A DNA stretch of 54,316 bases from Nitrosopumilaceae archaeon. GTDB lineage: Archaea; Thermoproteota; Nitrososphaeria; Nitrososphaerales; Nitrosopumilaceae. The notes beneath the pieces were generated by a model, which made no database searches, had not been told where the DNA came from, and saw only the letters and a program-made list of their open reading frames with translations. The stretch spans positions 1 through 54,316 of the forward strand of contig CBDATR010000013.1 in the NCBI GenBank assembly GCA_965200155.1, read 5' to 3'. Below are positions 9,748 to 52,653 of this stretch, in pieces; position 1 is the stretch's first letter, and each line of letters opens with the position of its first letter. The position numbers and the translations under genes are program-made.

Positions 9748-9846
9748 GTATGAGTTCACGTCTTCCGGAATCTTGTGCACAAAAGAACCGGTTCTTTAAC
9801 TGTCGCGATCAGTTGTGCGTAAATTTAGACACAGGTGAACTCATAC
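9748..9846 (+). mobile_element. 92-bp MITE (99-bp scarred variant) inside IS5 copy 1
   Basis: TIR GTATGAGTTCAC/GTGAACTCATAC; TCACA replaced by AGAACCGGTTCT. Confidence 0.95.
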
Positions 9847-10340
9847 AACCGTTTAGCTCACTTCCGATATACTTCATCAAGATCCGGTTACCCCACTACA
9901 CGACATACGTTAGTGCTGGCAGGTGCCATTCACATTGTTCATGCTTGACGGATTGTGTGCCATAAAATACACCCCAGTTTGAAGCAACATGGGCTGTTAC
10001 TGTCAATCATGCGCATAAGGTCTAATGTCAACCTGTAGAAAAACTGAGTTTCACTTATGGTGGCCGCGGAACTTGCAGCCAATCTGGGAATGGTTCTCCC
10101 AGTAGAGTGACCTTTTAGATCATCCTCCGACTCTCTCTGCTTCAGATAGTCAGTGTCTAGAGGATTGAAACTGGTCAGTCTTTCCCAATGGTCTCATCAA
10201 GACCGTACCAAGACTTGTACTCTCTTGTGTGACCTAAACGGTTACATGTCGTGTCGTTATGGATGTACCACAATCCCACTAATGACGAACCGATCAAGTT
10301 AGGGCGCCATGTAAGTGTGGATGAGGCCATAATAGAAAAA

Positions 10341-10922
10341 TTATAGATTGTCCATGGAACGGGAATGCTTGGACGTATGCGGTCTCTCTCCGGAGTATCT
10401 GCGACGCATGTGACCAGAGGGTCGGCCATCCAGCAGTTCAAGGAACCATGATTCATGCTCTATCTCTTCTGCCAGTATGTGAGATGCAAGCTCGTATGTC
10501 ATGGGATCCTTGCCATGAGTCATATTGCATACCTTGTTCCAGTTTACGATAGCGCCCTGCTCGGCCTTGAGACATTTTTCCAGTATCTGTCGCAGGCTTG
10601 TACTCTTTGTGGACTGGAGAAAGTCCGCTCCTGCCAACTTTGTGAAATCAGATATATCCTTTGGAAACTCGCCGCCCAGCTGGTATATTCTGTCTATGCA
10701 TGACTCAAAGTGGCTCAGATCCTCGAGGCGTGCATCCTCAATGACCCCCTTGACACCCTCGCCATCCATGCCGGTACAGAATGCCCTCAGATTTGTAAAG
10801 TAATAATATGCCACAAACTCTACGGACGCGTTGTATACCAGTACGTCAATGAGCTCGTCTACATCTATTCCATTCTGCTTTAGTACCTTGACGCCCACAA
10901 CTGTGTGTTTTTTTGTTGCCAT
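10341..10922 (-). CDS. ferritin-like DNA-protection protein (Dps-like/DpsL)
   Basis: AYYY, EDARLEDLSHFE, KAEQGAI and EEIEHE di-iron motifs. Confidence 0.85.
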   Translation of the reverse strand: MATKKHTVVGVKVLKQNGIDVDELIDVLVYNASVEFVAYYYFTNLRAFCTGMDGEGVKGVIEDARLEDLSHFESCIDRIYQLGGEFPKDISDFTKLAGADFLQSTKSTSLRQILEKCLKAEQGAIVNWNKVCNMTHGKDPMTYELASHILAEEIEHESWFLELLDGRPSGHMRRRYSGERPHTSKHSRSMDNL

Positions 10923-11058
10923 TGAGGGAGGACAATATCAATTACGTATTAAATATTGATGTCATTATCTGTGTAACCGTTTAGGTCTCACCATGACTTA
11001 ACCATATGTTCTGATTAGTCCAATACACGACATATGGAAGACCCCGAGGTTGAGATTC

Positions 11059-11159
11059 GTATGAGTTCACGTCTTCCGGAATCTTATGCATAAATCACAT
11101 TAACTAGAACAACCTGTTCCATCAGTTATGCGTAAATTTAGACACAGGTGAACTCATAC
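11059..11159 (+). mobile_element. MITE (101-bp variant with a 15-bp scar)
   Basis: Both TIRs present; GTCGCG replaced by AGAACAACCTGTTCC. Confidence 0.95.
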
Positions 11160-11997
11160 GTGAGAAGTGCAATCTTCTCTCATTGTAGTAGTCTACATAA
11201 TCCCGGAGACTGTCATAATACCATATCTCGTTGGACTCTTAAATAAGAGTCCCCTAGTCCTCAATCGTTCTATGGAAGCGCTCCAGTTTGCCATTTGACT
11301 GCGGGGGGTATGGTCTGGAATTGATTAGTATGATGTCTTGATCCAGCAGTTCTTCCTAGAATAGTGTGGGTTTCCAGTTATTTTTGCCCTTTTATTGTCC
11401 TACGAAACACGCGCCGTTATCCGAGATGCAGGGGCGCCGAATCGTTTCATTGCCAATCTCAGTAATAGAGTGGCGTTCTCTGAGGTTGCATACTCAAATA
11501 GTACAGCTCCGACTATACACCTGGATGCATCATCTATGAGATTCAGTCCCCTGAAGCGCTCATCTTTTCATGACATGCCAGTGCCACATTGCATTGGAAT
11601 ATTTACGCTCATAGCGTACCCACTCTGACTTTGCAGGTGATGAGACTGTCGTGCCGTTCTTTTTCATTATGCGATATACTGAGCGATATATTGTAATTCT
11701 GTCTAAGCCTCTTTGCAATACGTACTACTCCGGCGGGGTCCTTGCTGTATGCTTCAGTTACCATTCGTATTTGGGTGGCGGTGATTGGTATCATGGGCCT
11801 GCCCATCTTTACTCGAGTCGTTCCCGTTCTCTGGTTCACAATCTTCGTACGTGTCTTGTTTCAGGTCTTGAGCTATGTTGGTTGTGGCAACGCCTCTTTT
11901 TGTCTTGATTCCTCTGTTATTCTATTTACCATCTGGCTTGTGCAATCTGAACTACTGTACGCCGGATCCTAAGCGGACTTACTTTTCGTACTATTGA
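11160..11997 (-). pseudogene. IS481-family element remnant, followed by a partial MITE (12001-12026)
   Basis: DDASR, SDNG, PYPPQSNGKLERF and YYNERRLH fragments with frameshifts; homologous to 35307-36363. Confidence 0.85.
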
Positions 11998-12137
11998 TCG
12001 AGATTCCGGAAGACGTGAACTCATATGCATGATTAGCTAACTTGATGTCCCTGCCGGGGCGCGCCTCCCAATCTTGCATGAGCAGTTACCGGTGCCCGGC
12101 AACACCGTTTATAAAAGGACTGTCCATCACAATGCTA

Positions 12138-12410
12138 ATGGCCTCCAAGAACCGACCCGGTGCACAGGACAAGGACAAAAAGAAGGACAAGGATACACAG
12201 ACCAAGGCGGAGATAACTGTAGTACTTACGGATAAACAGGCCGAGCGCTATCTCAAGAGCTCCAAGGTTATTACCGCGTCGGAACTGGCGCACCAGACCG
12301 GCGTAAAGATATCTGCTGCCAACCTATACCTGAAGGACGCGGTTCAGCAGGGGACTATAAAGAGAGTGGGCGGATATAGTGGCCACTGGCTCTATCAGCG
12401 TAATTCATAA
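12138..12410 (+). CDS. rps25e: 30S ribosomal protein S25e-like
   Basis: Lys-rich N-terminus plus winged helix (VITASELA..GVKISAA); TATA box TTTATAAA near 12108. Confidence 0.7.
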   Translation: MASKNRPGAQDKDKKKDKDTQTKAEITVVLTDKQAERYLKSSKVITASELAHQTGVKISAANLYLKDAVQQGTIKRVGGYSGHWLYQRNS

Positions 12411-12790
12411 ATTTTGAATACATCTCCAGCCCTGACATTTTGCAGTACGTTTGTGTCATCCTGGATGGTGCCGATGGGCGTCATTTTGGCAGTAGGGGTG
12501 CAGTCCCGTGTAAAAAAGCACAGACAGCGCTGGTTGGACAGGAATGCCACATCGCCGGACTTGAACTTTTCTCTGGTCCGTTCCCGACCCGAGTCAATCT
12601 CTGTATTGATGTATATCATATCATCTGTGCGGTGGGCGTTACCCTGTATGGGAAGTGACTGTAGCATGATTCTGACTGTGCGTGGGGCCAAGTGACGCTT
12701 AAAATTTACGGGAATTTGGGTATCCTGCACTTGTAGGATGGTATTTTGAAATGATACTGTGCCTTTTTGTAGTATGGCATCATTCTGCAT
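12395..12790 (-). CDS. cyclophilin-like fold protein (DUF369/TM1367-like)
   Basis: APRTV..LP, GDVAF..CLCFF and MTPIG motifs. Confidence 0.7.
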   Translation of the reverse strand: MQNDAILQKGTVSFQNTILQVQDTQIPVNFKRHLAPRTVRIMLQSLPIQGNAHRTDDMIYINTEIDSGRERTREKFKSGDVAFLSNQRCLCFFTRDCTPTAKMTPIGTIQDDTNVLQNVRAGDVFKIYELR

Positions 12791-12911
12791 TCAATATATC
12801 ATTCCATCAGTAGACTATTTAGGAATTGGTGCGCATGTGTACAATTCCGGCGCGGGCCTGGCAAAATACAACTTGTTTGTGGGAACTATTGTGGGGCGGA
12901 GTGTGGCTGTT

Positions 12912-13003
12912 GTATGTGTTCACGTCTTCCGGAATCTTATGCACAAATCACATTAACTGTCGCGATCAGTTATGCGTAAATTTAGACACAGGTGAACTCA
13001 TAC
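12912..13003 (+). mobile_element. 92-bp MITE
   Basis: Matches the consensus with one TIR mismatch; no TSD. Confidence 0.95.
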
Positions 13004-13823
13004 AAATAGCCTTCCGCTAGACGTACTTGGTATTGTCGGTGAATACCATCAAGTTTATTTAAAAAATCTCAGATATTAATGCTTGGATCCAAGTTAGTAA
13101 TTACCATGACAGAATGATCGAAAATACTCAAACCGTTTCTCACATACATTTTTAATCTAACTTGTTTGGAGTTATACAACAAACTAACTGACAGTTACGC
13201 TTTATATCAGGACATGTGGGTAATGGGTGGCAGAATGATGATAGGGTATTCTGAGTGATTGATGAGATAAGCCCTGGGGTATCTGACTGTGAGTGTGACC
13301 GAATCGCGATTATTACTCGCTTCTGGAATCGGTACACTATGGATGTATCATGAGGACCGCCGGAATAGTGCTGTACCGGCACGATGATTGTATGAGTTTG
13401 CGTCATGTAAAATCGTACTATTCGTTACAATGTGGGCGCACTCGTGCCTCTTATGGAGTCTTTGACCACTTCATAACGTCTTTAATTTCTGGAATGCGCA
13501 TACCTCTGGAGTCTGTCAACTTGGATAGAATGCTAGGCCCGTTCCACAGACAATGCCATATCTGGGTAGCAAGCGCAGAATTGCCCTGCAGATTCTGTAA
13601 TGGTTCCCAGCAAACATGTGGCGAGTGGTGGGCGCCCTTTGCAGGCTCCGTGACAATATCTGTTCATGCATTATTCAATGGGTAACCGTTTATAGCGGCC
13701 ACCATAAGTCTTTGGGCGACTAATTTGATCAAAATATCACAATTATCACAGGCTTATTTGCGCGCCCCCAAGAGGGTGGTTAATTTGGCATGTCAATATG
13801 GTATTGTGTGCAGCTAAATATGG

Positions 13824-13922
13824 GTATGAGTTCACCTGTGTCTAAATTTACGCACAACTGATCGCGACAGTTAAAGAACCGGTTCTTTTGTGCACAAGAT
13901 TCCGGAAGACGTGAACTCATAC
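13824..13922 (-). mobile_element. MITE (99-bp scarred variant) with 8-bp TSD AAATATGG
   Basis: TIRs and a perfect direct repeat; same scar as 9748-9846. Confidence 0.95.
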
Positions 13923-14089
13923 AAATATGGTACTTTGAATCAAGATAAAAGTAGAAACTTCGATCTTATATACTAGTATAATGAATCGCGCCCAACAATT
14001 ACACCAAATTCAGGCAAGCGAGGGATCCGGGCCAATTGCGCGCCGACTGGGCATGCTGATGTTATTGCTGAATATGCAGCTTAATTTTG

Positions 14090-14468
14090 GTATGAGTTCA
14101 TGTCTTCCGGAATCTTGTGCACAAATCACATTAACTGTCGCGATCAGTTGTGCGTAAATTTAGACACAGGTGAACTCATACCAACAAGATACGTGGGCAA
14201 CCGTTTAAGTCACCACAGATTGAGATATGCACTTATTCCCTAAAATGGGTTGCCAGCTCGGTGCTATGATTTAGTATGTCGCCACAAATTCATCTAAATG
14301 TATCTGGGGGTGGCACTCATCACATATCGCGCCAACTTGTCATTATGAAGTGTTGCGTGGTAACAGGATTCAAATTGTATGAGTTCACCTGTGTCTAAAT
14401 TTACGCATAACTGATCGCGACAGTTAATGTGATTTGTGCATAAGATTCCGGAAGACGTGAACTCATAC
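14090..14468. mobile_element. composite of two inverted MITEs (14090-14181, 14377-14468) with 195 bp cargo
   Basis: Outer 8-bp TSD TAATTTTG; neither MITE has its own TSD. Confidence 0.9.
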
Positions 14469-15733
14469 TAATTTTGCGCAAGCCGCCATAAAGTATCAGT
14501 ATGATATACGTACTGTCATAACGTGATATAACCGGTTACGGCAGGGAGGTAATGATACAGCGGGAATCTGAGACTGACAAGCCCAGATCAGCTCGCCCCA
14601 CGAAAATAAAGCGAGAACAGCTGGAGAGTGCCCGTTTATGGGCGCCAAGCCACGTATTCACCACTACAGGATTACCTCGAAGAGATATCCGGCATATGGC
14701 TGAGCGCACATCAGGTTCAAGCGTTACGCCAAAAAGTGGGGTTGCTCCAACAAAAAGTCATCCCCAATCCACATGAATTATGATTCAATGGAAGACGTGA
14801 AAAAATGGAGGTAAGAAATGTCAGAAAAGGTTGCACGTTACATAAAGATGGATTATGCCATTGTTACCCAGGATGAATCCCATTTCAAGACCGAGAGATT
14901 ATCTGCGCGATTCTGGGCTCCTGCAGGCAGGCGCGTACTCATGGTATGAACCGGCAGGCGATACCGGTTCTCCATGGCCTGTACTATGATTAATGACGGC
15001 AGGGTATTCCTTGATGATTATACGGTCATAGATACAGAGAATTTCCTGGATCACATACATAACAAGGTGGGCAAGATGGTACTATTCGTGGACATGGCAC
15101 ACCTCAAGGAAGGCCAAGGAATTCTTTGCTGATCGGGACATAATCGTAATAGAGTATCCGGTTGGACATCCATACCTGAATCCAGTCAAGGAATTCTGGA
15201 GCGTACTCAAGAGGAGGATGGATCACTCCATACGATATTCGGATATCAATTACCACAAGCATGCAGTGTATGATTTCAAAGATGGCCATAAGCTCGATTA
15301 TGATTTTAACAAATTCTGAAACAGAAAACCAGCTGATGGATTAATACTGCCAATCATGGAATCAGTACGCAAGGGGGAACCCAGTGATCCAAAAACAAAA
15401 AAAAAAAACGGTTCAAAAAGTGCAGGCGGTGCGGAAAGCACATCCGTGTCGGCCGGTATAGTACAAAAGGTCAAACTAGGTTTACCTACAAAGTAGTTGG
15501 TACACTATTTCATGCCACTCTGATCAGGGAATAAGTGGTGGATTTTTGTGCGTGATCGTTCTGGAGGCCCATACATGTACACAGTCATTATACGCCACTA
15601 AACTCGTCATGAAGTATTCCATGTCCATAAAGTATGGTAGGGTACATTACTTGCATCTGCTGATTTAGCCTGTCTGCCATCCCTGTTGTGATATTTTATG
15701 GAAAATCACTGCCAAGACTTATGGTGACTGCTA

Positions 15734-15866
15734 TAGGTCATCCTTGGACAATCGATAAAAATACGCCGCTAGCATGTCCGTTCTTGCTTTTTCTAACACT
15801 ACGTCTCGAATATGCCCGTGAATTCACCATCTAGGCGTTGCTCTTTAACTCGACCTAAACGGTTAC
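15734..15866. repeat. second, older ~140-bp MITE family (TIR GTAACCGTTTAGGTC); left tip at 13682-13692
   Basis: Aligns in reverse with 50037-50176; left TIR is split at TA by the IS630 element. Confidence 0.7.
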
Positions 15867-16110
15867 TGCTTGGGCGGCGTGAATGACACATGAGTCACTA
15901 TACATTTCACCCTCTGTGGTGTGAGTTCGCGTACACGTCAACACCATGTCACTAATTCACCGTATGTGAACTCTTCTGGTAATATCCGGCTGTAAAACGG
16001 AATCAATCATGACACCATAGCTCCTGTATGGGAGACTAGAACTACTGATCATACCATTAGTTTTAGCTAATAAACGATTATTATTTAACGACTGTGCGAA
16101 TGGTTGCTGC

Positions 16111-18605: not shown

Positions 18606-18721
18606 GTGCGCGGATCCAGCTTTTTGGTGTATATTCGTATGTGTTTACACGATGAATTGCAAAGATTTGAGCACGCCAACTCAGACAGTTTTTATAACCC
18701 GCGTCACAATATTGTGGTATA

Positions 18722-21429: not shown

Positions 21430-21430
21430 T

Positions 21431-23684: not shown

Positions 23685-25022
23685 TGATACGGATTTGTAT
23701 GAGTTCACGTGTTTTGATCACATAATAAGATAGAATGCATCCCAGTTTTTTAATTATAATTGCATTCTGGCAGCAACCTCGTTCATTACAGAAAGGCCCT
23801 GAGCCCGCCATCTCTGAACACATGTGGACATGCGGCGCATTACACCCTTTATCTGGCCACTAATCTTGCGGAATACCACTGCGTATCAGAACCGGTTCCA
23901 CTGCTCCGCTGGATTGTTGGTGGGCTCCACACTGTCATATTCTAAGAATACGAACATGCATGGTATGGCCTTATTCAATCCTTTTACCTTCTTTTGCAGT
24001 TCAGTATCATCAACATCACAATACTGATGCATCTGCTCCTGCCTCAAATGAGTGTCGTAATTGCGCGGACGGCCCGTAGCGATTCACGTGCGCTCCGGAT
24101 CAAATCGTTGTCAAGTTTGATCCGGGCGTCCTGATCACCGGGATCGATATAGAATCCTGCATGTAATATACTGGTATCGCGCAATCAATGCGCCCAGATG
24201 GTGCTTCCCACCGTCATCAAACCGGCGATACACAACGTACCTGTCTGTGACTATCGCGCCCTGGTAACCGTTCAAGTATTTGCCCACTACATATGAACTC
24301 CTACTTTTGTATATCATCCACTCTTCGGCCCGCATCCCCCATATCCAGCCACGCTTACCCGCCAGTGATATACCAGTTTCGTCCACATGAATGCTGGGTG
24401 ATTTTTTCATAAATTGTTTCATAAATGATTCGCATGCATCGGCGGCCCTGGCAATTATGTTGTTTACCGCACCCACCGATATATTCAGGCCGAAGAGATC
24501 CCTCGAAATTACAGGTACGCGTTTTATTGGAATCTTTTCCGCACGTAACGCAGTGTTGGCACCACATCTCAAAACCACCACTCTCTGGGACGTCCGCTGC
24601 TGGGGCTAGTTGTTTTTTACCGCACATGCAGGAGGCCATCTCTATAACATGAAGGGTCTCCTCTATTCTGGCTGGTATTAATTCTGTTATGCGTCGTTGT
24701 TTCCAACCACTTTTTGTCATTATATTGCTGCACTCACATTGTGGAGTATGCTCAAAGGTGTGGTGCATTACTCTGTCGGGGTTGTGGGAACGGGAAACCC
24801 CCTTGTGTCCCTTTTGCGCGCTAGCCTTTTTGGCTGATTTCGTACTGGCTTCTGTCTGTTGCTTATTATCTCCCTGTTTCCGCTTCTGTTTCCGCTTCTT
24901 GTACTGGAGGAATTGAAGGGATGGTGGCGAGTGAGCATTCTCATAATATTTAAGTCGCGTTGTGATTACCGCAATTTTCCCCTGTTTTTCTTCTAATTTC
25001 TCATTTAATTCGTTTACATAAT

Positions 25023-26180: not shown

Positions 26181-26272
26181 GTATGAGTTCACCTGTGTCT
26201 AAATTTACGCACAACTGATCGCGACAGTTAATGTGATTTGTACACAAGATTCCGGAAGACGTGAACTCATAC
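26181..26272 (-). mobile_element. 92-bp MITE
   Basis: Matches the consensus; no TSD. Confidence 0.95.
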
Positions 26273-29061: not shown

Positions 29062-30635
29062 AGACCTTATGCGCATGATTGACAGTAACAGCCCATGTTG
29101 CTTCAAACTGGGGTGTATTTTATGGCACACAATCCGTCAAGCATGAACAATGTGAATGGCACCTGCCAGCACTAACGTATGTCGTGTAGTGGGGTAACCG
29201 GATCTTGATGAAGTATATCGGAAGTGAGCTAAACGGTTGTATGAGTTCACCTGTGTCTAAATTTACGCACAACTGATAGAACCGGTTACCAGTTAATGTG
29301 ATTTGTGCACAAGATTCCGGAAGACATGAACTCATACCATTAATTTAGTGGATTTTCTGATGAGTAATATTCGAATTATAATAACACGGAAATTATGGAC
29401 AGATATTTTTCAAGAATTTCTTGTACCTGGTATGCTTGTGCATAATGTGTAAATTATGCAACCCAGATACTACGAGTAGATCTTCCCGGAATTCCTCACG
29501 ACTGCCATCATATACCTGACTTAATCTACGATATACCTTTAGCATTCGAATTACATTCTCGATTAATATGCGCCTTTTTGATACATATTGGTTGTATTTC
29601 CTTTCAGTTTTAGTGAGTGATTCCCTACCCCTGTATGGAATTATGACCTTTGCGCCGGGTAGGAAGTCTTTCATACCCTGGTATCCTGCATCTGCTATTA
29701 CTGTTATCTTATCGGATGGTGGCGTGGTTGATTCTTTTAGGGACTTGCCCCATTTGCCACCGAGGGGAATATCATTCTTGAATATACCATAATCGTGTCT
29801 TTTTCCCTCATATACTCCACTTACGTGAATTATCAGTCTTTTCTTGTTTGATGTTATCTGTACGTTATACGTGTGGGTTTTTTGTTTACCAGAGTACATT
29901 GCCTCCTGATTTTTTTTAGGACGTTGTACGCGTACATGTGTCCCGTCAGTCTTTATCTCCCCTCCGGCTCGGCCTGGAACAATTTCCTTAAAGTCGGGTG
30001 TTGACTTGATTTGTGATATTGCTTTTGCAACGGTATCGGCCGTTGGGAGTATCTTGATCAGTCCCTGCTTTGTAAACTGGATGTAACGGCATATGTTTGA
30101 CTGGTTTATCTTGAGTATTGCTGCCAGCAGCTCCTGCTTTGTATTGCAGCGCAGGCGTATCAGTGTAACTAAGAGTACATGCCTGACCGGAAATTTGTTC
30201 ACGTGCCCGCGATCATTTGTAAGTTCTAAGAATCGCCGTGCATCATCGCCTTCCAGGGACTCTACGTATTCTGTGAATCTGATTAGTATCCATTTGAACT
30301 CTTCCGGAGTGCATCCGGTCAGGGAATGAAGCTGATCCTTGCGTTCTATGATGTCATCGAGATTTGAAACGAGGGCATTCTTTGTTTGAGCTTCAAGTTT
30401 GGCGTGCAGGTTTGTTACTTCGGCCTCGGACCTGGTGCGTAGCCGGTAGTACTCTGTGACTAACTGCTCCTTGGTGAGTTCTGCTTTTAGCATACCTGGT
30501 ATTACAAAATTAGGTCTTAACTTTTCTGTTTCACACGAGTCTGTGGGAAAACCCATGATACTAGGTCAATTGTTCGTATCTAACAACTTGTTTTAGACGT
30601 GCAGGGTGGGAGAAGTGATTCTGCGCATACGGTCT
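29062..30635 (-). mobile_element. IS5-family element, copy 2, with 3-bp TSD AAT; contains a scarred MITE at 29239-29337
   Basis: Near-identical to 8414-10023. Confidence 0.9.
29393..30556 (-). CDS. IS5-family transposase, open reading frame intact
   Basis: Same DDE motifs as 8493-9692. Confidence 0.88.
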   Translation of the reverse strand: MGFPTDSCETEKLRPNFVIPGMLKAELTKEQLVTEYYRLRTRSEAEVTNLHAKLEAQTKNALVSNLDDIIERKDQLHSLTGCTPEEFKWILIRFTEYVESLEGDDARRFLELTNDRGHVNKFPVRHVLLVTLIRLRCNTKQELLAAILKINQSNICRYIQFTKQGLIKILPTADTVAKAISQIKSTPDFKEIVPGRAGGEIKTDGTHVRVQRPKKNQEAMYSGKQKTHTYNVQITSNKKRLIIHVSGVYEGKRHDYGIFKNDIPLGGKWGKSLKESTTPPSDKITVIADAGYQGMKDFLPGAKVIIPYRGRESLTKTERKYNQYVSKRRILIENVIRMLKVYRRLSQVYDGSREEFREDLLVVSGLHNLHIMHKHTRYKKFLKNICP

Positions 30636-31888
30636 AATAAAATCACCCAGCATACATGTGGACGAAACTGGTATATCACTGGCGGGTAGGCGTGGTTGGG
30701 TATGGGGGATGCGAGCCGAAGAGTGGATGATATACAAAAGTAGGAGTTCAAATGTAGTGAACAAATACCTGAACGGTTACCAGGGAGCGATAGTAACGGA
30801 CAGGTACGTTGTGTACCGCCGGTTTGATGACGGTGGGAAGCACCAGTTGTGTTGGGCGCATTTATTGCGCGATACCCAGGCATTACATGCAGGATTCTAT
30901 ATTGATCCCGGTGCTCAGGACACCCGGATCAAACTTGACAACGACCTGAAAGGATTGTTCCGGAGCGCACGGGAATCCCTGAATCACTGCGGGCCGTCCG
31001 CGCAATTACGACACTCATTTGAGACAGGAGCAGATGCATCAGTACTGTGATGTTGATGATACTGAACTGCAAAAGAAGGTAAAAGGATTGAATAAGGCCA
31101 TACCAGGCATGTTCGTATTCTTAGAATATGACAGTGTAGAGCCCACCAACAATCCAGCGGAGCAGTGGAACCGGTTCTGATACGCAGTGGTATTCCGCAA
31201 GATTAGTGACCAGATAAAAGGTGGTGAAAGGGCCATGCGCCGCATGTCCACATTCGTATCATGTGTTCAGACATGGAGGGCTCAGGGCCTTTCTGTAATG
31301 AACGAGGTTGCTGCCAGAATGCAGTTATAATTAAAAAAACTGGGATGTATTCTATCTTATTATGTGATCAAAACACGTGAACTCATACCATCCGCATGCT
31401 AAAGGTGTACCGTAGATTAAGTCAGGTATATGATGGTAGTCGTGATGAATTCCGGGAAGATCTAATTGTAGTATCCGGATTGCATAACCTGCACATTATG
31501 CAAACCAGATACAAGAAATTCCTGAAAAATATATGTCCATAGGCTTCCATAATACGAATAAGTTTTATGGTAATCATTTATGCCACTCAAGCAATCACAG
31601 CAGGACTTGTAACACACGCTGGGGCTGGTGGGCACCATTTCCACTGGTCAGGACCATCATTCCAATAGTCCTCTGGTTGGACTGTTACGTAACAGTCCCT
31701 TGTTTGTTCATGTTTACCGGATTGTGTCATAAAATACACCCTAATTTGAAGCGACCTAAACAATTACTGTCAATCATGCGCATAAGGTCTATTAAGTTAC
31801 ACCACTTTGTATTTAAACATTACAAGGGAAATCAGGGGAATTATATAGTTAAGTTACGTTTATAAAAGCGAATCAATATCATGACAAT

Positions 31889-32791
31889 ATGCAACAAGCA
31901 CCAGGCAAGTCATTCAGAAAGGGAGTCACCATGGCCGAATTGTTCCAAATGTTCCCGGATGAAAAGACCGCCATGAAGTGGTTCGAAACTACTCTCTGGA
32001 AGGACGGTAGAAAATGCCCCCGATGCGGTTCCAGTATGACGTCCGAGTCCGCACATAGAACAATGCCGTACCGCTGTGTAGACTGTAAGCAGTTCTTTAG
32101 TGTTAAAATGGGGACCATAATGGAACGTTCTAAAATATCATACCAGTCTTGGGCGATAGCAACATACCTGTTTGCCACTAATCTAAAGGGTGTCAGTTCC
32201 ATGAAGCTGCACCGTGACTTGGGTATCACACAGAAATCAGCGTGGTTCCTTGTACATCGACTAAGAGAGTCATGGGGAACATTGGTCAGTGATAAGATGG
32301 AAGGGCCAGTGGAGATCGATGAGGTATACATTGGTGGCAAAGAGAAGAATAAGCACCATTCTAGAAAAGGCGCCACAGGTAAAACCGCGGTTGTAGGCAT
32401 CAAGGATAGAAAGACGGGAACCATTCTCGCCAAGCCTGTTTCCGAGACTACAGCGGCACGTCTCGGTCAATTTAATCAAGATAATGCCGAGGCGGATGCT
32501 GTCAAATACACGGATGACAACATGGCTTACAAATCGTTAAAACACCATGAGAGTGTGAAGCACAGTGTAGGTGAATATGTCAAAGAACAGGCTCACACGA
32601 ATAGAACCGGTTACAGTCGTTCTGGGCATTGTTGAAACGGGGGTATTACGGCATATTCCACCATGTTTCCGCGAAACACTTACACCGGTATGTTAACGAA
32701 TTCGCCGGGAGATTCAACATTAGAGTACTAGACACCATTTCAATGATGGAATCGATAACACGTTCCATGACTGGTCACAGGCTGACATATC
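31889..32791 (+). pseudogene. IS1595-family transposase, frameshifted and truncated
   Basis: Zn ribbon CPRC..CVDC, VEIDEVYIGG, YTDD, HTN/SFWALLKR and YVNEF motifs; frameshift at 32603-32614. Confidence 0.9.
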
Positions 32792-32883: not shown

Positions 32884-33947
32884 AAAGTAAGTCCGCTTAG
32901 GATCCGGCGTACAGTAGTTCAGATTGCACAAGCCAGATGGTAAAGAGAATAACAGAGGAATCAATAGTTAGACAGCGCAAAAGAGGCGTTGCCGCAACCA
33001 AAATAGCTCAAGACCTGAAACAAGACACGTACGAAGATTGTGAACCAGAGGACGGGAACGACTCGAGTAAAGATGGGTAGGCCCATGATACCAATCACCA
33101 CCACCCAGATACGAATGGTAACTGAAGCATACAGCAAGGATCCCGCCGGAGTAGTACGTATTGCAAAGAGGCTTAGACATAATACATATCGCGCAGTATA
33201 TCACATAATGAAAAAGAACGGCACGACAGTCTCATCACCTGCAAAGTCAGAGTGGGTACACTATGAGCGTAAATATTCCAATGCAATGTGGCACGTAGAC
33301 TGGCATGTCATGAAAAGATGAGCGCTTCGAGGGACTGAATCTCATAGATGATGCATCTAGGTGCATCGTCGGGGCGGCACTATTTGAGCATGCAACCTCA
33401 GAGAAGTATGAGTTCACGTCTTCCGGAATCTTGTGCACAAATCACATTAACTGTCGCGATCAGTTGTGCGTAAATTTAGACACAGGTGAACTCATACTCA
33501 GAGAACACCGTTCTATTACTGAGACTGGCAATGAAACGATTCGGCGCCCCTGCATCTCGGATAACGGCGCGTGTTTCGTAGGACAATAAAAGGGCAAAAA
33601 GAACTGGAAACCAACACTATTCAAGGAAGAACTGCTGGATCAAGACATCATACTAATCAATTCCAGACCATACCACCCGCAGACAAATAGCAAACTGGAG
33701 CGCTTCCATAGAACGATTGAGGACTAGGGGACTCTTATTTAAGAGTCCAACGAGATATGGCATTATGACAGTCTCCGGGATTATGTGGACTACTACAATG
33801 AGAGAAGATTGCACTTCTCACTGGATATAGATAACGACGAAACACCGCTTCAGGAATAAAAAGGCGACCCAGACAATTAGGGCAAATGATGCAAAATGGA
33901 CGGAGCGAGATGCCAATGACTAGCGGACCGACTTTTCATACATTACA
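32884..33947 (+). mobile_element. IS481-family remnant with a MITE at 33406-33497 (TSD TCAGAGAA)
   Basis: WHVDW, DDASR and GKLERF fragments; end ...CATACATTACA. Confidence 0.88.
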
Positions 33948-35306: not shown

Positions 35307-36363
35307 TTTAATAGTACGAAAAGTAAGTCCGCTTAGGATCCGGCGTACAGTAGTTCAGATTGCACAAGCCAGATGGTAAAGAGAATAACAGAGGAATCAA
35401 GACAGTACATCATAAGACAGCGCAAAAGAGGCGTTGCCGCAACCAAAATAGCTCAAGACCTGAAACAAGACACGTACGAAGATTGTGAACCAGAGGACGG
35501 GAACGACTCGAGTAAAGATGGGTAGGCCCATGATACCAATCACCACCACCCAGATACGAATGGTAACTGAAGCATACAGCAAGGATCCCGCCGGAGTAGT
35601 ACGTATTGCAAAGAGGCTTAGACATAATACATATCGCGCAGTATATCACATAATGAAAAAGAACGGCACGACAGTCTCATCACCTGCAAAGTCAGAGTGG
35701 GTACACTATGAGCGTAAATATTCCAATGCAATGTGGCACGTAGACTGGCATGTCATGAAAAGATGAGCGCTTCGAGGGACTGAATCTCATAGATGATGCA
35801 TCTAGGTGCATCGTCGGGGCGGCACTATTTGAGCATGCAACCTCAGAGAACGCCGTTCTATTACTGAGACTGGCAATGAAACGATTCGGCGCCTCACATA
35901 TGATACAATACCGTCTATGTCGAAATCCTACTATTACTGAGACTGGCAATGAAACGATTCGGCGCCCCTGCATCTCGGATAACGGCGCGTGTTTCGTAGG
36001 ACAATAAAAGTGCAAGAAAAGCCGGAAACCCACACTATTCGAGGAAGAACTGCTGGATCAAGACATCATACTAATCAATTCCAGACCATACCACCCGCAG
36101 ACAAATGGCAAACTGGAGCGCTTCCATGGAATGATTGAGGACAAGGGGACTCTTATTTAAGAGTCCAACGAGATATGGCATTATGACAGTCTCCGGGATT
36201 ATTTAGACTGCTACAATGAGAGAAGATTGCACTTCTCACTGGATAGATAACGGCGAAACGCCGCTTCAGGAATAAAAAGGCGACCCAGACAATTAGGGCA
36301 AATGATGCAAAATGGATGGAGCGGGATGCCAATGACTAGCGGACCGACTTTTCATACATTACA
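35307..36363 (+). mobile_element. IS481-family non-autonomous copy with ~14-bp TSD ACAACGATCTACCA
   Basis: Imperfect TIRs ending ACA; direct repeat at 35293-35306 and 36364-36377. Confidence 0.88.
35858..35966. repeat. 36-bp exact duplication flanking a 37-bp foreign insert (repeat-spacer-repeat)
   Basis: CTATTACTGAGACTGGCAATGAAACGATTCGGCGCC at 35858-35893 and 35931-35966; single copy in the three sister elements. Confidence 0.9.
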
Positions 36364-40894: not shown

Positions 40895-41984
40895 GTATGA
40901 GTTCACCTGTGTCTAAATTTACGCATAACTGATCGCGACAGTTAATGTGATTTGTGCATAAGATTCCGGAATGTAATGTATGAAAAGTCGGTCCGCTAGT
41001 CATTGGCATCCCGCTCCATCCATTTTGCATCATTTGCCCTAATTGTCTGGGTCGCCTTTTTATTCCTGAAGCGGCGTTTCGCCGTTATCTATCCAGTGAG
41101 AAGTGCAATCTTCTCTCATTGTAGCAGTCTAAATAATCCCGGAGACTGTCATAATGCCATATCTCGTTGGACTCTTAAATAAGAGTCCCCTCGTCCTCAA
41201 TCATTCCATGGAAGCGCTCCAGTTTGCCATTTGTCTGCGGGTGGTATGGTCTGGAATTGATTAGTATGATGTCTTGATCCAGCAGTTCTTCCTCGAATAG
41301 TGTGGGTTTCCGGCTTTTCTTGCACTTTTATTGTCCTACGAAACACGCGCCGTTATCCGAGATGCAGGGGCGCCGAATCGTTTCATTGCCAGTCTCAGTA
41401 ATAGAACGGCGTTCTCTGAGGTTGCATGCTCAAATAGTGCCGCCCCGACGATGCACCTAGATGCATCATCTATGAGATTCAGTCCCTCGAAGCGCTCATC
41501 TTTTCATGACATGCCAGTCTACGTGCCACATTGCATTGGAATATTTACGCTCATAGTGTACCCACTCTGACTTTGCAGGTGATGAGACTGTCGTGCCGTT
41601 CTTTTTCATTATGTGATATACTGCGCGATATGTATTATGTCTAAGCCTCTTTGCAATACGTACTACTCCGGCGGGATCCTTGCTGTATGCTTCAGTTACC
41701 ATTCGTATCTGGGTGGTGGTGATTGGTATCATGGGCCTACCCATCTTTACTCGAGTCGTTCCCGTCCTCTGGTTCACAATCTTCGTACGTGTCTTGTTTC
41801 AGGTCTTGAGCTATTTTGGTTGCGGCAACGCCTCTTTTGCGCTGTCTTATGATGTACTGTCTTGATTCCTCTGTTATTCTCTTTACCATCTGGCTTGTGC
41901 AATCTGAACTACTGTACGCCGGATCCTAAGCGGACTTACTTTTCGTACTATTGACATAAGATTCCGGAAGACGTGAACTCATAC
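40895..41984 (-). mobile_element. MITE (TSD GAGGAACT) interrupted by an IS481 copy (40972-41956, 13-bp TSD TAAGATTCCGGAA)
   Basis: Both TSDs are visible; IS ends TGT...ACA. Confidence 0.92.
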
Positions 41985-43245: not shown

Positions 43246-43344
43246 GTATGAGTTCACGTCTTCCGGAATCTTGTGCACAAATCACATTAACTGGTAACCG
43301 GTTCTATCAGTTGTGCGTAAATTTAGACACAGGTGAACTCACAC
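43246..43344 (+). mobile_element. MITE (99-bp scarred variant)
   Basis: TCGCG replaced by GTAACCGGTTCT. Confidence 0.93.
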
Positions 43345-43479
43345 ACTACATTTGCATAACAAGTATTACTCCAAGGCTAACGGGATCATTCCCTGCCGGT
43401 TTGAGATATGTTTGCAGGATTCCATTACACGAAAACGCGTCCCAATTCGGAGCAACCTGAATGATTACCTAAAAAGTCA

Positions 43480-46718: not shown

Positions 46719-47533
46719 ACTACTCCTGGAAACAGCGTTCCTGTTATATTTCCATGTAATGCATCTCTAATGCACCGGGGCTTGTTACCGTTCAAGATTA
46801 CTGCAGCTACTCCGCATTGCGCAATTTTGTCGGCCGACACTACCTTGCGCCTCATGCCCCCGGTTACATCACTCCCTTTACCGGAGTCCGGCTCCCTGAC
46901 AACTCCCTCTGCCACCAGGCTCCTGGCCATGGTATTATCCACCCGTTCCATCACCTCTCCGCCCCTATACAGCCCATCCACATTGGTGGCAAATATGGCA
47001 AGGCGCGGACGCAGTATATGTGAGAGTAATATCATGATGTCATCGCCGGATAGTATGTACGAGTATGGTGTGTCACGTGTATCATATAACATGGCATCGC
47101 CAAAGGTGACAGGGCACATTCCCGCCTGTGCAATGCGTTTCATCTCATGTACCCGTGATATGGTAGTATCAGAGCATAGCAGTGAAGATTCATGGGACAG
47201 TTTTGTATCATACATGAATACGGATGGCGGACAGGCATACGGTCGCATTCCATTCTCAAGCATCGTGTCCAGTATGAGACTGTTCAACCGCACCATGGAA
47301 TTCTTGACCGCGGCCAGACCCTCTAGGCTGTACTGGCGGGGCATACTGTGCATATCATATAGGACAGAATAGTGGTGTCCGAAAGAGCCACCGCCATGCA
47401 CCACCATGACGGGTTCCCCCTGATCTATTATTTCAGATACTGTACTGGACAAAGCCGCCACCGCCTCCTTCTGAAAGGAGAGCGGAATTGACTTGTCAGT
47501 AATTACTGAGCCACCAAGCTTGAGTAAAATCAC
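46715..47533 (-). CDS. isopentenyl phosphate kinase
   Basis: LKLGGSVITDK, HGGGSFGH, SGDD and DVTGGM motifs; likely GTG start at 47533. Confidence 0.88.
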   Translation of the reverse strand: MILLKLGGSVITDKSIPLSFQKEAVAALSSTVSEIIDQGEPVMVVHGGGSFGHHYSVLYDMHSMPRQYSLEGLAAVKNSMVRLNSLILDTMLENGMRPYACPPSVFMYDTKLSHESSLLCSDTTISRVHEMKRIAQAGMCPVTFGDAMLYDTRDTPYSYILSGDDIMILLSHILRPRLAIFATNVDGLYRGGEVMERVDNTMARSLVAEGVVREPDSGKGSDVTGGMRRKVVSADKIAQCGVAAVILNGNKPRCIRDALHGNITGTLFPGVV

Positions 47534-47663
47534 AATTATGAACAGACCCAGTTCAATTATTAACTTGTCGGAAAAATACTGCGGTATTAATGGAATTCCC
47601 GTAGCGGCGATCATAAGTCTTGGTGACAAATTTCCGTAAATTATCACTGGATGGCCAACAGGA

Positions 47664-49277
47664 GTATGAGTTCACGTCTTCCGGAATCTTGTGCACAAAT
47701 CACATTAACTGTCGCGATCAGTTGTGCGTAAATTTAGACACAGGTGAACCCATACCTTGCGTCTACCAAGAAAGAACTTGCACATTACAAGGCAGGGGCC
47801 ATGGGCAACATGCGCCTTGTCCTACGTCTTGCGGCCACCGAGAAAGATCTTGCACATTACAAGGAACGTGTGAGAGTATTGGAAGCATATGTGTCACGCA
47901 CCACAAAAGAAATACGAAATCTCACACAAGATTTCCAAATTATTATAAATTATGTAAATGAATTGGAAAAGAAATTAAAAGAAAAACAGGGGAAAATTGC
48001 GGTACTCACAACGCGACTTAAATATTATGAGAATGCTCACTCGCCACCATCCCTTCAATCCCTCCAGTACAAGAAGCGAAAACAGGGAGATAATAAGAAA
48101 CAGAAAGAAGCCAGTACTAAATCAGCCAAAAAGGCTGGCGCTCAAAAGGGACACAAGGGGGTTTCCCGTTCCCACAACCCCGACAGAGTAATGCGCCACA
48201 CCTTTGAGCATACTCCACAATGTGAGTGCAGCAATATAATGACAAAAAGTGGTTGGAAACAACGACGCATAACAGAATTAATACCAGCAAGAATAGAGGA
48301 GACCCTTCATGTGATAGAGATGGCTGCATGCAAGTGCGGCAAAAAACAACTAGCCCCAGCAGCGGGCGTCCCAGAGAGTGGCGGTTTTGAGATGTGGTGC
48401 CATCACTGCATTACGTGCGGAAAAGATTCCAATAAAGCGCATACCTGTAATTTCGAGGGATCTCTTCGGCCTGAATATATCGGTGGGTGCGGTAAACAAC
48501 ATAATTGCCAGGGCCGCCGATGCATGCGAATCATTTATGGAAACAATTTATGAAAAAATCACCCAGCATTCATGTGGACGAAACTGGTATATCACTGGCG
48601 GGTAAGCGTGGCTGGATATGGGGGGTGCGGGCCGAAGAGTGGATGATATACAAAAGTAGGAGTTCATATGTAGTGGGCAAATACCTGAACGGTTACCAGG
48701 GCGCGATAGTCACAGACAGGTACGCCGTGTGTTACCGGTTTGATGACGGTGGGAAGCACCAGTTGTGTTGGGCGCATTTATTGCGCGATACCAGTATATT
48801 ACATGCAGGATTCTATATCGATCCCGGTGATCAGGACGCCCGGATCAAACTTGACAACGATTTGATCCGGAGCGCACGTGAATCGCTGCGGGCCGTCCGC
48901 GCAATTACGACACTCATTTGAGGCAGGAGCAGATGCATCAGTATTGTGATGTTGATGATACTGAACTGCAAAAGAAGGTAAAAGGATTGAATAAGGCCAT
49001 ACCAGGCATGTTCGTATTCCTAGAATATGACAGTGTGGAGCCCACCAACAATCCAGCGGAGCAGTGGAACCGGTTCTGATACGCAGTGGTATTCCGCAAG
49101 ATTAGTGGTCAGATAAAGGGTGGTGAAAGGGCCATGCGCCGCATGTCCACATGTGTTCAGACATGGAGGGCTCAGGGCCTTTCTGTAATGAACGAGGTTA
49201 CTGCCAGAATGCAATTATAATTAAAAAACTGGGATGCATTCTATCTTATTATGTGATCAAAACACGTGAACTCATAC
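47664..49277 (+). mobile_element. MITE (47664-47755) fused to a 5'-truncated IS66 pseudogene
   Basis: MITE replaces the left end; right TIR ends at 49277; 37-bp repeat pair at 47756-47864. Confidence 0.9.
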
Positions 49278-49415
49278 ACGGATTTAGTCATCCGCTACTA
49301 CACAATTTACGTACGAGTTCACGTCTTTGGGAATCTCGTACACTAACTGTTACTATCAGTAGTGCAAACATGGGTGGACAATACCCATGACCTTGAAACC
49401 TAGTGTATGAGAAAT

Positions 49416-49826
49416 CTATTTCTTGCTATCTGGCTGTTCGGTGTTCTGCTCGGCACTTTGGGCATTTTTGTCTTCCAGTTCCGGTTTTGTAGCCTTGTCC
49501 GGGAGAGGCGAGGTCGTGTCACCCTCAACTGGAGTATCTTTGACTGGTGAATCCAGTGGGGGAGCGCTAGCGGTCTCCTCGGTCTTGTAAGGCAGGACTA
49601 GAATTGCGTCGTCATCCTCTACTAATTCCACGGATATCTTTCTTGGGGGTCTCCTTACCCCTCGGGCCCATATCTGTTGTGCCAGCTCCTGATCTATCTT
49701 GACGTTGGTCGTATGTGCATGGCGGTAAACGTACTCCCGTATCATGTTTATTGCACGCACTGCTCTGTGCTGGCTCTGGGATAGCATTACCTTGCCCAAG
49801 TTTATCGTATGTACGCCCTCATCCAA
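49416..49826 (-). CDS. rpl31e: 50S ribosomal protein L31e with a low-complexity C-terminal extension
   Basis: TINL, RAVRAI and IWARG..PP motifs. Confidence 0.88.
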   Translation of the reverse strand: MDEGVHTINLGKVMLSQSQHRAVRAINMIREYVYRHAHTTNVKIDQELAQQIWARGVRRPPRKISVELVEDDDAILVLPYKTEETASAPPLDSPVKDTPVEGDTTSPLPDKATKPELEDKNAQSAEQNTEQPDSKK

Positions 49827-49829
49827 TGC

Positions 49830-49988
49830 CTAGCCCACCTCCACATCAGTACTGCGCCAGGCTCTGCGCTTGGGATTATTCCTTACGTTGCGCTTTGTCT
49901 TTAAGACTATCCATGTGGGTACCGGTGATGCCTGCTTGGTCTTTTTTATGAGACGGATCTTGCGGGATGTGCTCTTTCGGGCGGGCAT
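49830..49988 (-). CDS. rpl39e: 50S ribosomal protein L39e (not in the ORF track)
   Basis: MPARKSTSRKIRLIKKTKQASPVPTWIVLKTKRNVRNNPKRRAWRSTDVEVG; directly upstream of rpl31e. Confidence 0.92.
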   Translation of the reverse strand: MPARKSTSRKIRLIKKTKQASPVPTWIVLKTKRNVRNNPKRRAWRSTDVEVG

Positions 49989-50036
49989 GACTCTACTCTT
50001 TACGAACTCTTTTTAAATATATCTAATGCGCAGGTT

Positions 50037-50176
50037 GTAACTTTAGGTCGTGTTAAAGATCAACACCTAGACGGTAAATTCATAGTCATATGTGGGATGA
50101 CATGATAGAAAAAGCAAGATCGGACGTGTTAGCGGTGTATTTTGAACAGTTGCCCAGGGGTGGCCTAAACGGTTAA
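50037..50176. repeat. older ~140-bp MITE family copy
   Basis: GTAACTTTAGGTC...GGCCTAAACGGTTAA; aligns with 15734-15866. Confidence 0.7.
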
Positions 50177-50189
50177 TGTCCTGCCGTCA

Positions 50190-50800
50190 TCAATCATACA
50201 TGGAGAACCGGCGCCGCCCGACTGTCCATGCCATGAGTTCTCGCACTGGTCCAGAATCGCGCGGATAGTCTCTCGGTCTTGACCCATCAGGGGTGACTAT
50301 GGAATAGTTATGTAATGAGTGATCTGCCGGGACATGTTTTGTATCCCCTCTTCTACGTCTTTTACTGGATCCCGGTTTATGTGGATTGGGGAACGACTTT
50401 TTGGTGACGCGACCACACTTTTTGGCGTAACGCCTGACCTGGTTTTCGCTCAGCCGTGTACCGGATATCGCTTCCAAGTAATCTTGCTGCTCCTTTATGG
50501 CGCATACGTGACTTTGTGCCCATGATCGAATCATCTCCATCTGTTCCGGTTTTATTTTCGTGGGGCGGCCTGATATGCGCTTGTCCTTGAGCGACTTTCC
50601 TATTCCCTCTATATTCTGGCTCCCTGCTGTAACCGGTTATGCCATCTTGCAACAGTGCGCGTGTCGCAGTTATACTTTAGGGTGGCCTTTGCAAAATTAA
50701 CCTGTACATTCATTAGCATGCACAATCGGCACGAGACTTGCCCGGATTCTCTCGCTTGCTCGAATTTAGTGTAATTGTTGGGCGCAATCCATTGGAGAAT
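50190..50800 (-). pseudogene. IS630-family transposase fragment
   Basis: RTVARWHNRL and GRP HTH-type motifs; homologous to ~13980-14770. Confidence 0.65.
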
Positions 50801-51430
50801 ATGCAGAATCAGACAAATCATCAATTTCCAAAACAAAACATTTCTAAGTGGAATTATTCCAGTAAATATGATGCCCAAATTTAAGACACTCCCTGAAGAA
50901 ATGAAGCGTCTTCAAGTGAGTCTTGAACGCGCACATAAGGGGATAAAAAAGAGGGATAAAAAGCTGGAAGAGAGAGATAGGAAGATCAAGGAACTGGAAG
51001 AGTCACCTGCAAACTTAACCACACATGAAAGATGATGCATATCTTCACAAGATGATCAAAGAGAAAGCTGATCCGGATGATGTACGCCATTACGTAAATT
51101 TGGAAAACACAGTAAAGGATCACAAAAAGATGCATGACACTGCATTGTTGACAATCGAGGCATTCTGGTACATTTGCAGTCGTGTGTCAAAAAACATAGG
51201 CAATCACGAAAAGACTCTACTATTCAAGGATCTAGATGCGAATTCAGCCGAACCGGGGTCCAGACGCAAGCTGCTCTTTCATCATGCTACTAGAGCCAGA
51301 TCAAAAATGACCGAAGCTGAAATAGTAGCGGGGTGAACCAGTCCACGGTGAGTCGCTATGTCAGCGTCTTATCAAAACCTGTACAGGAAGCACTGGTATC
51401 ACCGGTGAAGATAACTGAGGCAATAGGTGC

Positions 51431-52012
51431 GTATGAGTTCACGTCTTCCGGAATCTTGTGCACAAATCACATTAACTGTCGCGATCAGTTATGCGTAAAT
51501 TTAGACACAGGTGAACTCATACCAGGATTCTATATCGATCCCGGTGATCAGGACGCCCGGATCAAACTTGACAACGATTTGAAAGAATTGTTCCGGAGCG
51601 CACGTGAATCGTTGCGGGCCGTCCGCGCAATTACGACACTCATTTGAGGCAGGAGCAGATGCATCAGTACTGTGATGTTGATGATACTGAACTGCAAAAG
51701 AAGGTAAAAGGATTGAATAAGGCCATACCAGGCATGTTCGTATTCTTAGAATATGACGGTGTGGAGCCCACCAACAATCCAGCGGAGCAGTGGAACCGGT
51801 TCTGATACGCAGTGGTATTCCGCAAAATTAGTGGCCAGATAAAGGGTGGTGAAAGGGCCATGCGCCGCATGTCCACATTCGTATCATGTATTCAGACATG
51901 GAGAGCTCAGGGCCTTTCTGTAATGAACTAGGTTGCTGCCAGAATGCAATTATAATTAAAAAACTGGGATGCATTCTATCTTATTATGTGATCAAAACAC
52001 GTGAACTCATAC
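51431..52012 (+). mobile_element. hybrid unit: MITE (51431-51522) + IS66 3' end, TSD ATAGGTGC
   Basis: 8-bp direct repeat flanks the hybrid. Confidence 0.92.
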
Positions 52013-52531
52013 ATAGGTGCGGCAAAAACCAACGAGGATATCACGAACATGCTGGCAGAGGAGGATGGCGTCATACCTTTGATACTGGATGGTACTGTAG
52101 TACGGACGGTGCGTCCCATAGACTCCCAGAAACAAAAAAGTCAATACTCCGGAAAAAAGAAATCACACGGATACACCATACTAATACTGACCGATATTCA
52201 CGGGGACACAATATGGACCAACGACGCCTTTGATGGTAGTACGCACGATTTTAGTATTCTAAAGCAGTCCATGGCAAAGCTAAATGGTCTAGGATTACTA
52301 TTTGAGGCCATGATCAAAAAGAACTCCGGATTGAAGGTAAAACTGTACACGGATCTGGGATTTGTGGGTATAGAAAAGATATTACCGGGAATCATATCTA
52401 TCCAGCCGCTCAAGAGATCAAAACATGAGAAACTAACAGAAGAGCAGAGGAAACACAACGCGCGTATAAACAAGACCAGAATAAAGGTAGAGCAAAGTAT
52501 AGGGAAGATCAAAATGTCTACCAGAATGTCC

Positions 52532-52653
52532 GTATGAGTTCACCTGTGTCTAAATGGAACGGGTCATTCTATAACTGATCGCGACAGTTAAAGAGTAACC
52601 GGTTACTATTTTGTGCATAAGATTGGAACCGGTTCCAAGACGTGAACTCATAC
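52532..52653 (-). mobile_element. triple-scarred MITE (122 bp), TSD GAATGTCC
   Basis: Three replaced segments relative to the 92-bp consensus. Confidence 0.93.

Follow-up and report, generated by a model that had tools for sequence, protein, structure and literature searches.

Why does one short palindrome recur inside unrelated mobile elements along a single archaeal contig, and what put it there? The contig (C13 of assembly G000; 54,316 nucleotides, analysed whole and called the window here) comes from a sponge-associated Nitrosopumilaceae archaeon whose 2.38-Mb assembly is held in 51 contigs (46.6% G+C; 87.6% completeness; 0.39% contamination). The palindrome is a 12-mer of the pattern RKAACCGGTTMY, that is RK-AACCGGTT-MY, in which AACCGGTT is a self-complementary 8-mer core; we call its copies scars. 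Our tentative answer, to which we give somewhat less than even weight, is that these 12-mers are repair patches, neither copies of a conventional element nor random sequence.

Thirteen matches to the pattern lie in the window (9784, 13875, 14528, 23888, 29278, 31167, 32603, 43294, 49066, 50629, 51792, 52595 and 52625), against a mean of 0.04 and a maximum of 1 in dinucleotide-preserving shuffles. Every AACCGGTT core in the window (13/13) has R-K and M-Y flanks, and two 15-mers accompany them at 11106 (minus strand) and 52556. The first-pass annotation that drew attention to these palindromes had placed all of its sites correctly, its list lacking only 14528, 50629 and 52595. Genome-wide, AACCGGTT occurs 233 times and ranks fourth among the 8-bp palindromes of G000; its flank logo shows a purine at -2 and G or T at -1, with the complement on the opposite side. 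The full pattern is found 162 times, versus 4 for a reversed-pattern control. Across 401 genomes of the class, a set that includes 4 unpublished genomes used for counts only, the next highest totals were 12 in the sister species G008 (control 3), 8 in G053 (control 3) and 7 in G310 (control 7). Neither the 30 relatives nor the 400 other class members showed enrichment (none above 12; controls 0-9), and the 8 matches in G053, considered as candidate scars, were rejected as coding repeats. The patch phenomenon is restricted to G000.

Grouping the 233 core sites by their immediate flanks gave 61 site classes, 29 of which have R-K on both halves where 3.8 would be expected (P = 4e-19), so that the comparison with expectation proposed in the first-pass annotation returned a clear enrichment. 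Three of the classes, in a 92-bp miniature inverted-repeat transposable element (MITE) and an IS66 derivative, hold 105 copies. When the same 233 cores were instead clustered by flank, 44 clusters resulted, 34 of them singletons versus ~36 expected from base composition; bare AACCGGTT outside repeats is not enriched over chance, and the excess lies in repeat families. Among 161 classifiable pattern copies, 90 lie in the MITE or its parent insertion sequence (IS) and 41 in the IS66-derived repeat (131/161 together), 2 in IS1595 and 14 in three other repeat families; the remainder are single- or two-copy sites. The excess is real and reflects ~25-30 events followed by amplification, the 40-fold genome-wide figure arising because scarred elements multiplied. 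For the matches that had been listed separately in the window, the positions hold, but the four IS66 matches are copies of one event, as are most of the MITE matches.

What happened at each event can be read by comparing filled with empty paralogues. At five MITE sites, in IS66, in IS1595 and in a 21-copy repeat, 12-15 bp were gained and 4-7 bp lost; the filled/empty alignments show no target duplication, and some junctions have extra bases (TG, A or TA). Taking as reference the unscarred 92-bp MITE copy at 26181-26272 (plus strand), scar A converts CGCGAC in the central loop to the 15-mer GGAACAGGTTGTTCT (net +9; 69 copies; 11106-11120, minus strand). Scar B turns TGTGA/TCACA into AGAACCGGTTCT (net +7; 43 copies alone and 12 in combinations) and is seen in a 99-bp MITE copy at 9784-9795 and in another copy at 13875-13886. 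Scar C, again in the central loop, replaces CGCGA with AGAACCGGTTAC (net +7; 19 copies; 29278-29289) and appears as GTAACCGGTTCT in the opposite MITE orientation at 43294-43305. A 122-bp MITE copy at 52532-52653 (plus strand), flanked by the 8-bp target duplication GAATGTCC, bears three scars: scar D, in which TTACGC gives way to the 15-mer GGAACGGGTCATTCT (13 copies; 52556-52570, plus strand); GTAACCGGTTAC, nested in an older type B scar at 52595-52606; and scar E, in which CCGG at the centre of TTCCGGAA becomes GGAACCGGTTCC (net +8; 8 copies; 52625-52636). These are the replacements that had been claimed for all five MITE sites.

Outside the MITE the anatomy is the same. The IS66-derived repeat exchanges GCAAAGC for AGAACCGGTTCC plus A (net +6), with 41 filled and 32 empty copies among the 73 that span the site; its patch falls in a conserved transposase motif. 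Its four copies in the window lie at 23888-23899, 31167-31178, 49066-49077 and 51792-51803, and the second of them has a stop codon in the transposase frame (PTNNPAEQ WNRF*). In the IS1595 transposase (2 filled copies, 1 empty), GGTATCG becomes AGAACCGGTTAC at 32603-32614 (net +5), shifting the frame so that the open reading frame (ORF) ends at 32635. The 21-copy repeat has one filled copy, with AGTATGC changed to TG plus AGAACCGGTTCT. Two further window sites lack such a comparison: ATAACCGGTTAC at 14528-14539, in a 3-copy repeat for which no empty paralogue was found, and the single-copy GTAACCGGTTAT at 50629-50640 in non-coding DNA. The insert was not copied from the flanks, since neither AACC nor GGTT occurs in the unscarred 92-bp MITE consensus, which was built from 400 copies of that length. 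Alignment to unscarred paralogues thus bears out the earlier description of an insert foreign to its surroundings that duplicates no target and deletes a few bases.

The two halves of the palindrome behave as independent draws from AG, GG, GT and AT. Counted over the 29 site classes, AG is the outer dinucleotide 22 times, GT 17, GG 11 and AT 8, which are exactly the four purine plus G/T combinations, and perfect palindromes make up 9/29 classes versus 8.3 expected under independent halves, in agreement with the freely mixed half-units noted at first pass. Within the type B class, where 4 copies have single core mutations, the outer bases are invariant; the variation must therefore arise at the event and not by later decay. 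Older scars have in turn been hit at their centres, in two cases: the type B scar at window position 52595 and a site at C5:44021, where GGAAC-CGGT-TCC became GGAAC-GTAACCGGTTAC-TCC. A one-sided variant, AGA followed by GTAACCGGTTCT (5 copies), looks like one new tail, GT plus AACCGGTT, paired to the surviving half of an older scar. Judged by their letters, both 15-mers would fit a design in which a 10-nt tail meets a 5-nt tail (GGAACCGGTT plus GTTCT), with 1 and 3 mismatches.

Lost bases, untidy junctions, a constant core, independent outer dinucleotides, the one-sided variant and the out-of-register 15-mers together lead us to favour repair with a defined filler. The process would begin with a rare break, probably double-stranded, at which 4-7 target bases are lost. 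Each 3' end would then gain two semi-random bases (a purine, then G or T) followed by the constant 8-mer AACCGGTT, and the two tails would pair through AACCGGTT and have their gaps filled, giving RK-AACCGGTT-MY with independently chosen halves; joining out of register would yield the 15-mers from a 10-nt and a 5-nt tail. The constant 8-mer might be templated on existing scars or supplied by a dedicated oligonucleotide or enzyme. Such events would reach fixation at neutral positions (transposons, pseudogenes and spacers), and the elements hit (the 92-bp MITE and its parent IS, the IS66 derivative, IS1595 and others) would afterwards have multiplied. The first-pass annotation had likewise supposed that both ends of a break are tagged and annealed; the anatomy and the independent halves fit that proposal, while the double-strand break and the 3' tailing are suppositions and no enzyme came to light. 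That the archaeon has, or recently had, a dedicated activity tagging both 3' ends with R-K-AACCGGTT and joining them through the tag is possible, though we consider it doubtful. If true, it would be a sequence-specific end-tagging repair pathway lacking a described counterpart, its products visible only through transposons that had multiplied. The signature matches no process that we found described; it had been put forward as undescribed, and the literature searches turned up no constant 12-bp palindromic replacement.

Amplification after scarring is evident in the carrier. The MITE is present in 573 full-length copies by blastn (~2% of the genome), with 400 at 92 bp, 59 at 99 bp and 66 at 101 bp, and almost all of its length variants are scar variants at the five positions. 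It has what defines a MITE: it is short and non-coding, has 12-bp terminal inverted repeats, a target duplication (8 bp, exact at 321/573 copies) and a high copy number, and it has a parent IS of ~1.09 kb, which shares bases 1-77 and 62-92 with it and is represented unscarred and full-length at 40895-41984 (plus strand) with the 8-bp target duplication GAGGAACT. Its target preference is symmetric (GCW, then 8 AT-rich bases, then WGC) and unrelated to the scar. The MITE was found in none of the 9 congeneric genomes and in none of 60 from the family, and a scan of one genome per species returned no relatives of the IS transposase. Scarred MITEs occupy many distinct loci (A 54, B 37, C 13, the triple-scar form 7), many with exact 8-bp duplications (A 36, B 27, C 6), and scars B and C also occur in full-length parent IS copies. 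The scars thus did not stop transposition, and the suggestion that they mark targeted transposon inactivation finds no support in MITEs scarred at 54, 37 and 13 loci. Neutrality followed by amplification explains the bias towards mobile DNA well enough.

Another IS, of ~1.6 kb with ends AGACCKTATGCGCA... enters MITE copies at MITE positions 46-48 with a 3-bp duplication (AGT); it is found in the window from 25066 onward and at C24:315408-317055 and C24:506929-508507. At C43:33793-34911, a full-length IS copy (C43:33823-34903) is inserted exactly in a scar, AACCGGTT serving as its 8-bp target duplication; 22 bp upstream, a short tandem duplication holds a second scar.

How the scars are distributed among MITE copies bears on another explanation, that the 12-mer is a functional palindrome, a site for a host or transposon protein, which arose once or a few times and spread by short-patch conversion and element-level selection. 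Consensus positions 32 and 65 hold T/C single-nucleotide polymorphisms (SNPs) 33 bp apart in tight linkage (158 TT, 115 CC, 32 TC and 21 CT copies; p = 3e-33). Scars A, B and C lie between them and yet are spread over the SNP backgrounds like unscarred copies (chi-square p = 0.42, 0.58 and 0.27), and no MITE copy has A together with B or C, where ~5.5 A+B copies would be expected if hits were independent. Because the scars are unlinked to the SNPs and A never meets B or C, the pattern suggests that short patches around the central hairpin were converted, or else that scarred IS masters gave rise to MITEs repeatedly. That spread, and the 13-54 loci reached by the scarred subfamilies, speak for a functional site. 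Conversion, however, cannot reach non-homologous positions such as the five MITE sites, IS66, IS1595 and unique DNA, and the scar breaks the transposase reading frame of both IS66 and IS1595; we regard a functional palindrome as improbable.

Beyond the large families, 18 single- and low-copy sites were checked; 16 of them fall in open frames no longer than 126 aa and are probably in non-coding or pseudogene DNA. One of the two in longer frames falls in a 489-aa frame, in what we take to be a conserved IMP dehydrogenase motif, and probably matches by chance. Transposon remnants adjoin or enclose several of the sites.

That the scars are no accident of chance, assembly or library linkers is argued by several lines at once. 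Chance is excluded by the shuffles and the reversed-pattern controls, and the scars have point-mutated descendants; dozens of loci have them in elements flanked by proper target duplications. Near-identical DNA is present in sponge metagenome runs of two studies, one of which may have supplied the assembly; unique stretches of the window are covered, with 0-2 differences, by contigs of four public runs, and the single-copy scar at 50629 stands in gap-free contigs of runs X1, X3 and X5, which span both studies. These contigs break at repeats, and scar-bearing MITE words are found at their loose ends. Nothing was found in favour of an origin by chance or artefact, which is accordingly very remote. 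In the same runs, contigs of all four run directly from 52523 to 52654, leaving out the triple-scar MITE and sharing 9 bases where the two sides meet; this represents either an empty allele or a copy of the surrounding IS that lacks the MITE. Among its genes the window has a type II 3-dehydroquinate synthase, ribosomal proteins S25e and L31e, and HerA. The assembly also includes many contigs of 2-11 kb with 35-41% G+C and no scar (C2-C4, C6, C14-C18, C26-C29, C32-C33, C40, C44-C45 and others), the large contigs having 45-49%; these may belong to another organism or replicon.

Possible agents of cutting or tailing were sought in G000 itself. TnpB and Cas genes, both named earlier as worth looking for, are present, but no link to the scars was seen. 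A full Cas1 domain lies in a 549-aa ORF, with a 636-aa ORF before it and a CRISPR array after it (C9:66700-92051; locus L016, 60000-79999); the array itself (C9:71010-92051) has 289 repeats of 36 nt and 288 spacers. CRISPR self-targeting was rejected as a source of breaks, with 1/288 spacers matching outside the array and none matching the MITE, IS66 or IS1595. The one match, by spacer 57, covers C25:4806-4833 over 28/37 nt and adjoins a repeat with GGAACCGGCTCT. The TnpB element (~1.55 kb; ~25-30 copies, for example C10:38746-40291) has inverted ends of its own, TGTATAGCG...CGCTATA, and MITE sequence occurs in 0/18 of the right flanks listed, which led us to reject TnpB homing or cleavage. 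GTAACCGGTTTC is native to the TnpB coding region; in some copies a second GTAACCGGTTAC or GTAACCGGTTCC lies ~50 nt from it and may be a scar. The only reverse transcriptase, on contig C50 (20900-24500), was set aside: it lies in a frame of gag (zinc knuckle), protease, reverse transcriptase, RNase H and integrase, typical of a eukaryotic long-terminal-repeat retroelement, and C50 is probably host (sponge) DNA binned with the archaeon.

Several observations weigh against repair with a defined filler. We identified neither an enzyme nor a template: Prim-Pol, Ku, C5 methylase and Y1 transposase each gave 0 matches in G000, as did a search for prokaryotic reverse transcriptases, so that the primase-polymerase or reverse transcriptase proposed earlier found no candidate there, absences that count for little because the genome is only 87.6% complete. 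Full-text literature searches found no precedent for a constant 12-bp palindromic filler or replacement. Polymorphic events, which would speak for an ongoing process, were not seen in the public contigs, which could not show any inside repeats. Five sites in one 92-bp element are a very large local excess that neutrality alone is insufficient to explain. The MITE's central hairpin has a 5-bp stem, and scars A and C lie in its 7-nt loop; the tips of hairpins with a stem of at least 3 bp coincide with 6/7 sites versus 46% of random positions (P ~0.04); this preference is only suggestive, and targeting of hairpin tips, being marginal in the formal test, was not retained as an explanation. Finally, GTAACCGGTTAC occurs twice in one MITE copy (C5:44021 and C5:44056), and two MITE sites share the 15-mer design in the same orientation; both look more like the copying of whole units than tails added separately.

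Whole-unit copying is the essence of a further alternative, in which the 12-mer or 15-mer is an ultra-small non-autonomous cassette that some enzyme copies as a unit, with a preference for small hairpins and for itself; such a cassette would be reminiscent of the cyanobacterial dispersed repeats discussed below. Besides the repeated GTAACCGGTTAC and the shared 15-mer design, it would account for one sequence in unrelated contexts, for nested insertions and for confinement to G000, a genome that also holds a genuine tiny insert. An unbiased scan of inserted words among repeat copies returned this second one, a 22-nt hairpin, GGGACTCTTATTTAAGAGTCCA, whose clean insertion duplicated 5 bp of target. 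It lies at ~59 loci genome-wide, among them window positions 11233-11252, 33729-33748, 36147-36166 and 41169-41188; one site in the ~1.09-kb IS family has 47 filled and 38 empty copies, and there are tandem second copies and four other contexts, each with its own 5-bp duplication. It looks like a genuine ultra-small mobile element, and no IS with ends matching it was identified. The comparison cuts both ways, however: whereas the hairpin is clean-jointed, the 12-mer has untidy junctions, with 4-7 bp lost, extra bases and no duplication. Twelve bases, moreover, leave almost no space for recognition sites, the halves assort at random, and no Y1/HUH transposase was found (PF01797, 0 matches in G000). 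We think a mobile cassette unlikely.

A palindrome is also what two abutted inverted ends would leave, and the scars could in principle be excision footprints or nearly precise remnants of a transposon whose inverted ends start RKAACC, as the first-pass annotation had allowed. One repeat with a similar motif near its tip does exist. The sister species G008 has a structured ~195-bp repeat in at least 10 copies (L001-L015, for example L013:4270-4464), ending ...GGCCCACC GGAACCGGTTAT ATT, with only three bases separating GGAACCGGTTAT from one end. Rfam returned no match for the repeat, and it resembles no G000 repeat. Within G000 the prediction fails at several points. RKAACCGG half-sites without a following TT number 473 versus 427 for the reversed control, and no repeat begins with a half-site; no MITE is interrupted by a larger insert at the scar sites; and the ends of the MITE, the TnpB element and other ISs differ from the scar. 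Transposon tips are normally the most conserved part of an element's end, but the outermost scar bases vary. A footprint of another resident IS (ends AGACC...GGTCT) was rejected in turn, the joined 10-mer AGACCGGTCT occurring 2 times versus 1 in the control. With no matching element ends in the assembly, and with target bases lost where a footprint would keep them duplicated, excision has little probability.

Set beside known systems, the repair patches that we favour resemble several and coincide with none. Heterocystous cyanobacteria have very small dispersed repeats (SDRs, 21-27 nt), which reportedly occur both in MITEs and in their own copies (Elhai et al. 2008, Genome Res 18:1484). The patches are similarly short, hairpin-capable, nested in their own copies and in MITEs, and limited to one narrow lineage; unlike SDRs, they measure 12 bp (15 bp in two cases), have variable outer bases and independent halves, replace 4-7 bases and reside in an archaeal host. 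To our knowledge, SDRs are restricted to a narrow lineage and have a conserved secondary structure and no known enzyme. Palindromes of the highly iterated (HIP) type originate by substitution and occur across unique as well as coding DNA. Like HIP1, the scar is a short palindrome strongly over-represented in one lineage, but its core is at chance level outside repeats, it arises by insertion with deletion, and it is not common to related genomes. Footprints of cut-and-paste transposition retain remnants of both inverted ends and the target duplication, and match a resident element; the patches share with them the short palindromic remnant without an element, and differ in losing target bases and in having no matching element in the assembly.

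Repetitive extragenic palindromic (REP) sequences and REPINs are defined by an imperfect palindrome of ~20-40 nt between genes. They are short palindromic repeats that multiply within one genome and are mobilised by RAYT transposases (PMC3116915). Our units likewise multiplied in one genome, but they are 12-15 bp long, lie mostly inside other transposons and have no Y1 (RAYT) gene that we could find. Synthesis-dependent microhomology-mediated end joining (SD-MMEJ) makes templated insertions near a break, with tails pairing through microhomology (PMC2943611, PMC5728401). The patches likewise combine a small deletion with a short insertion at the junction and untidy extra bases; unlike the SD-MMEJ insert, which is templated beside the break and differs from site to site, they share one core that is missing from the unscarred flanks. 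Each of the nearest known systems therefore fails in at least one of the defining features that we tested. We place the finding with very short dispersed palindromic repeats, with a real chance that it represents a new repair process.

The meaning of the scars depends on which of these accounts is right. A defined tagging or filler step, if true, would be a new way of joining DNA ends, one that leaves a barcode-like scar readable in genomes; were the 12-mer instead a mobile unit, it would be only about half as long as the smallest mobile repeats known to us. In either case, a burst of transposition can preserve and amplify rare repair events that would otherwise be invisible, and comparing filled with empty copies of high-copy repeats is an inexpensive route to such events in other genomes. 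The 22-nt hairpin, for its part, suggests that ultra-small insertions may be commoner in archaea than has been recognised.

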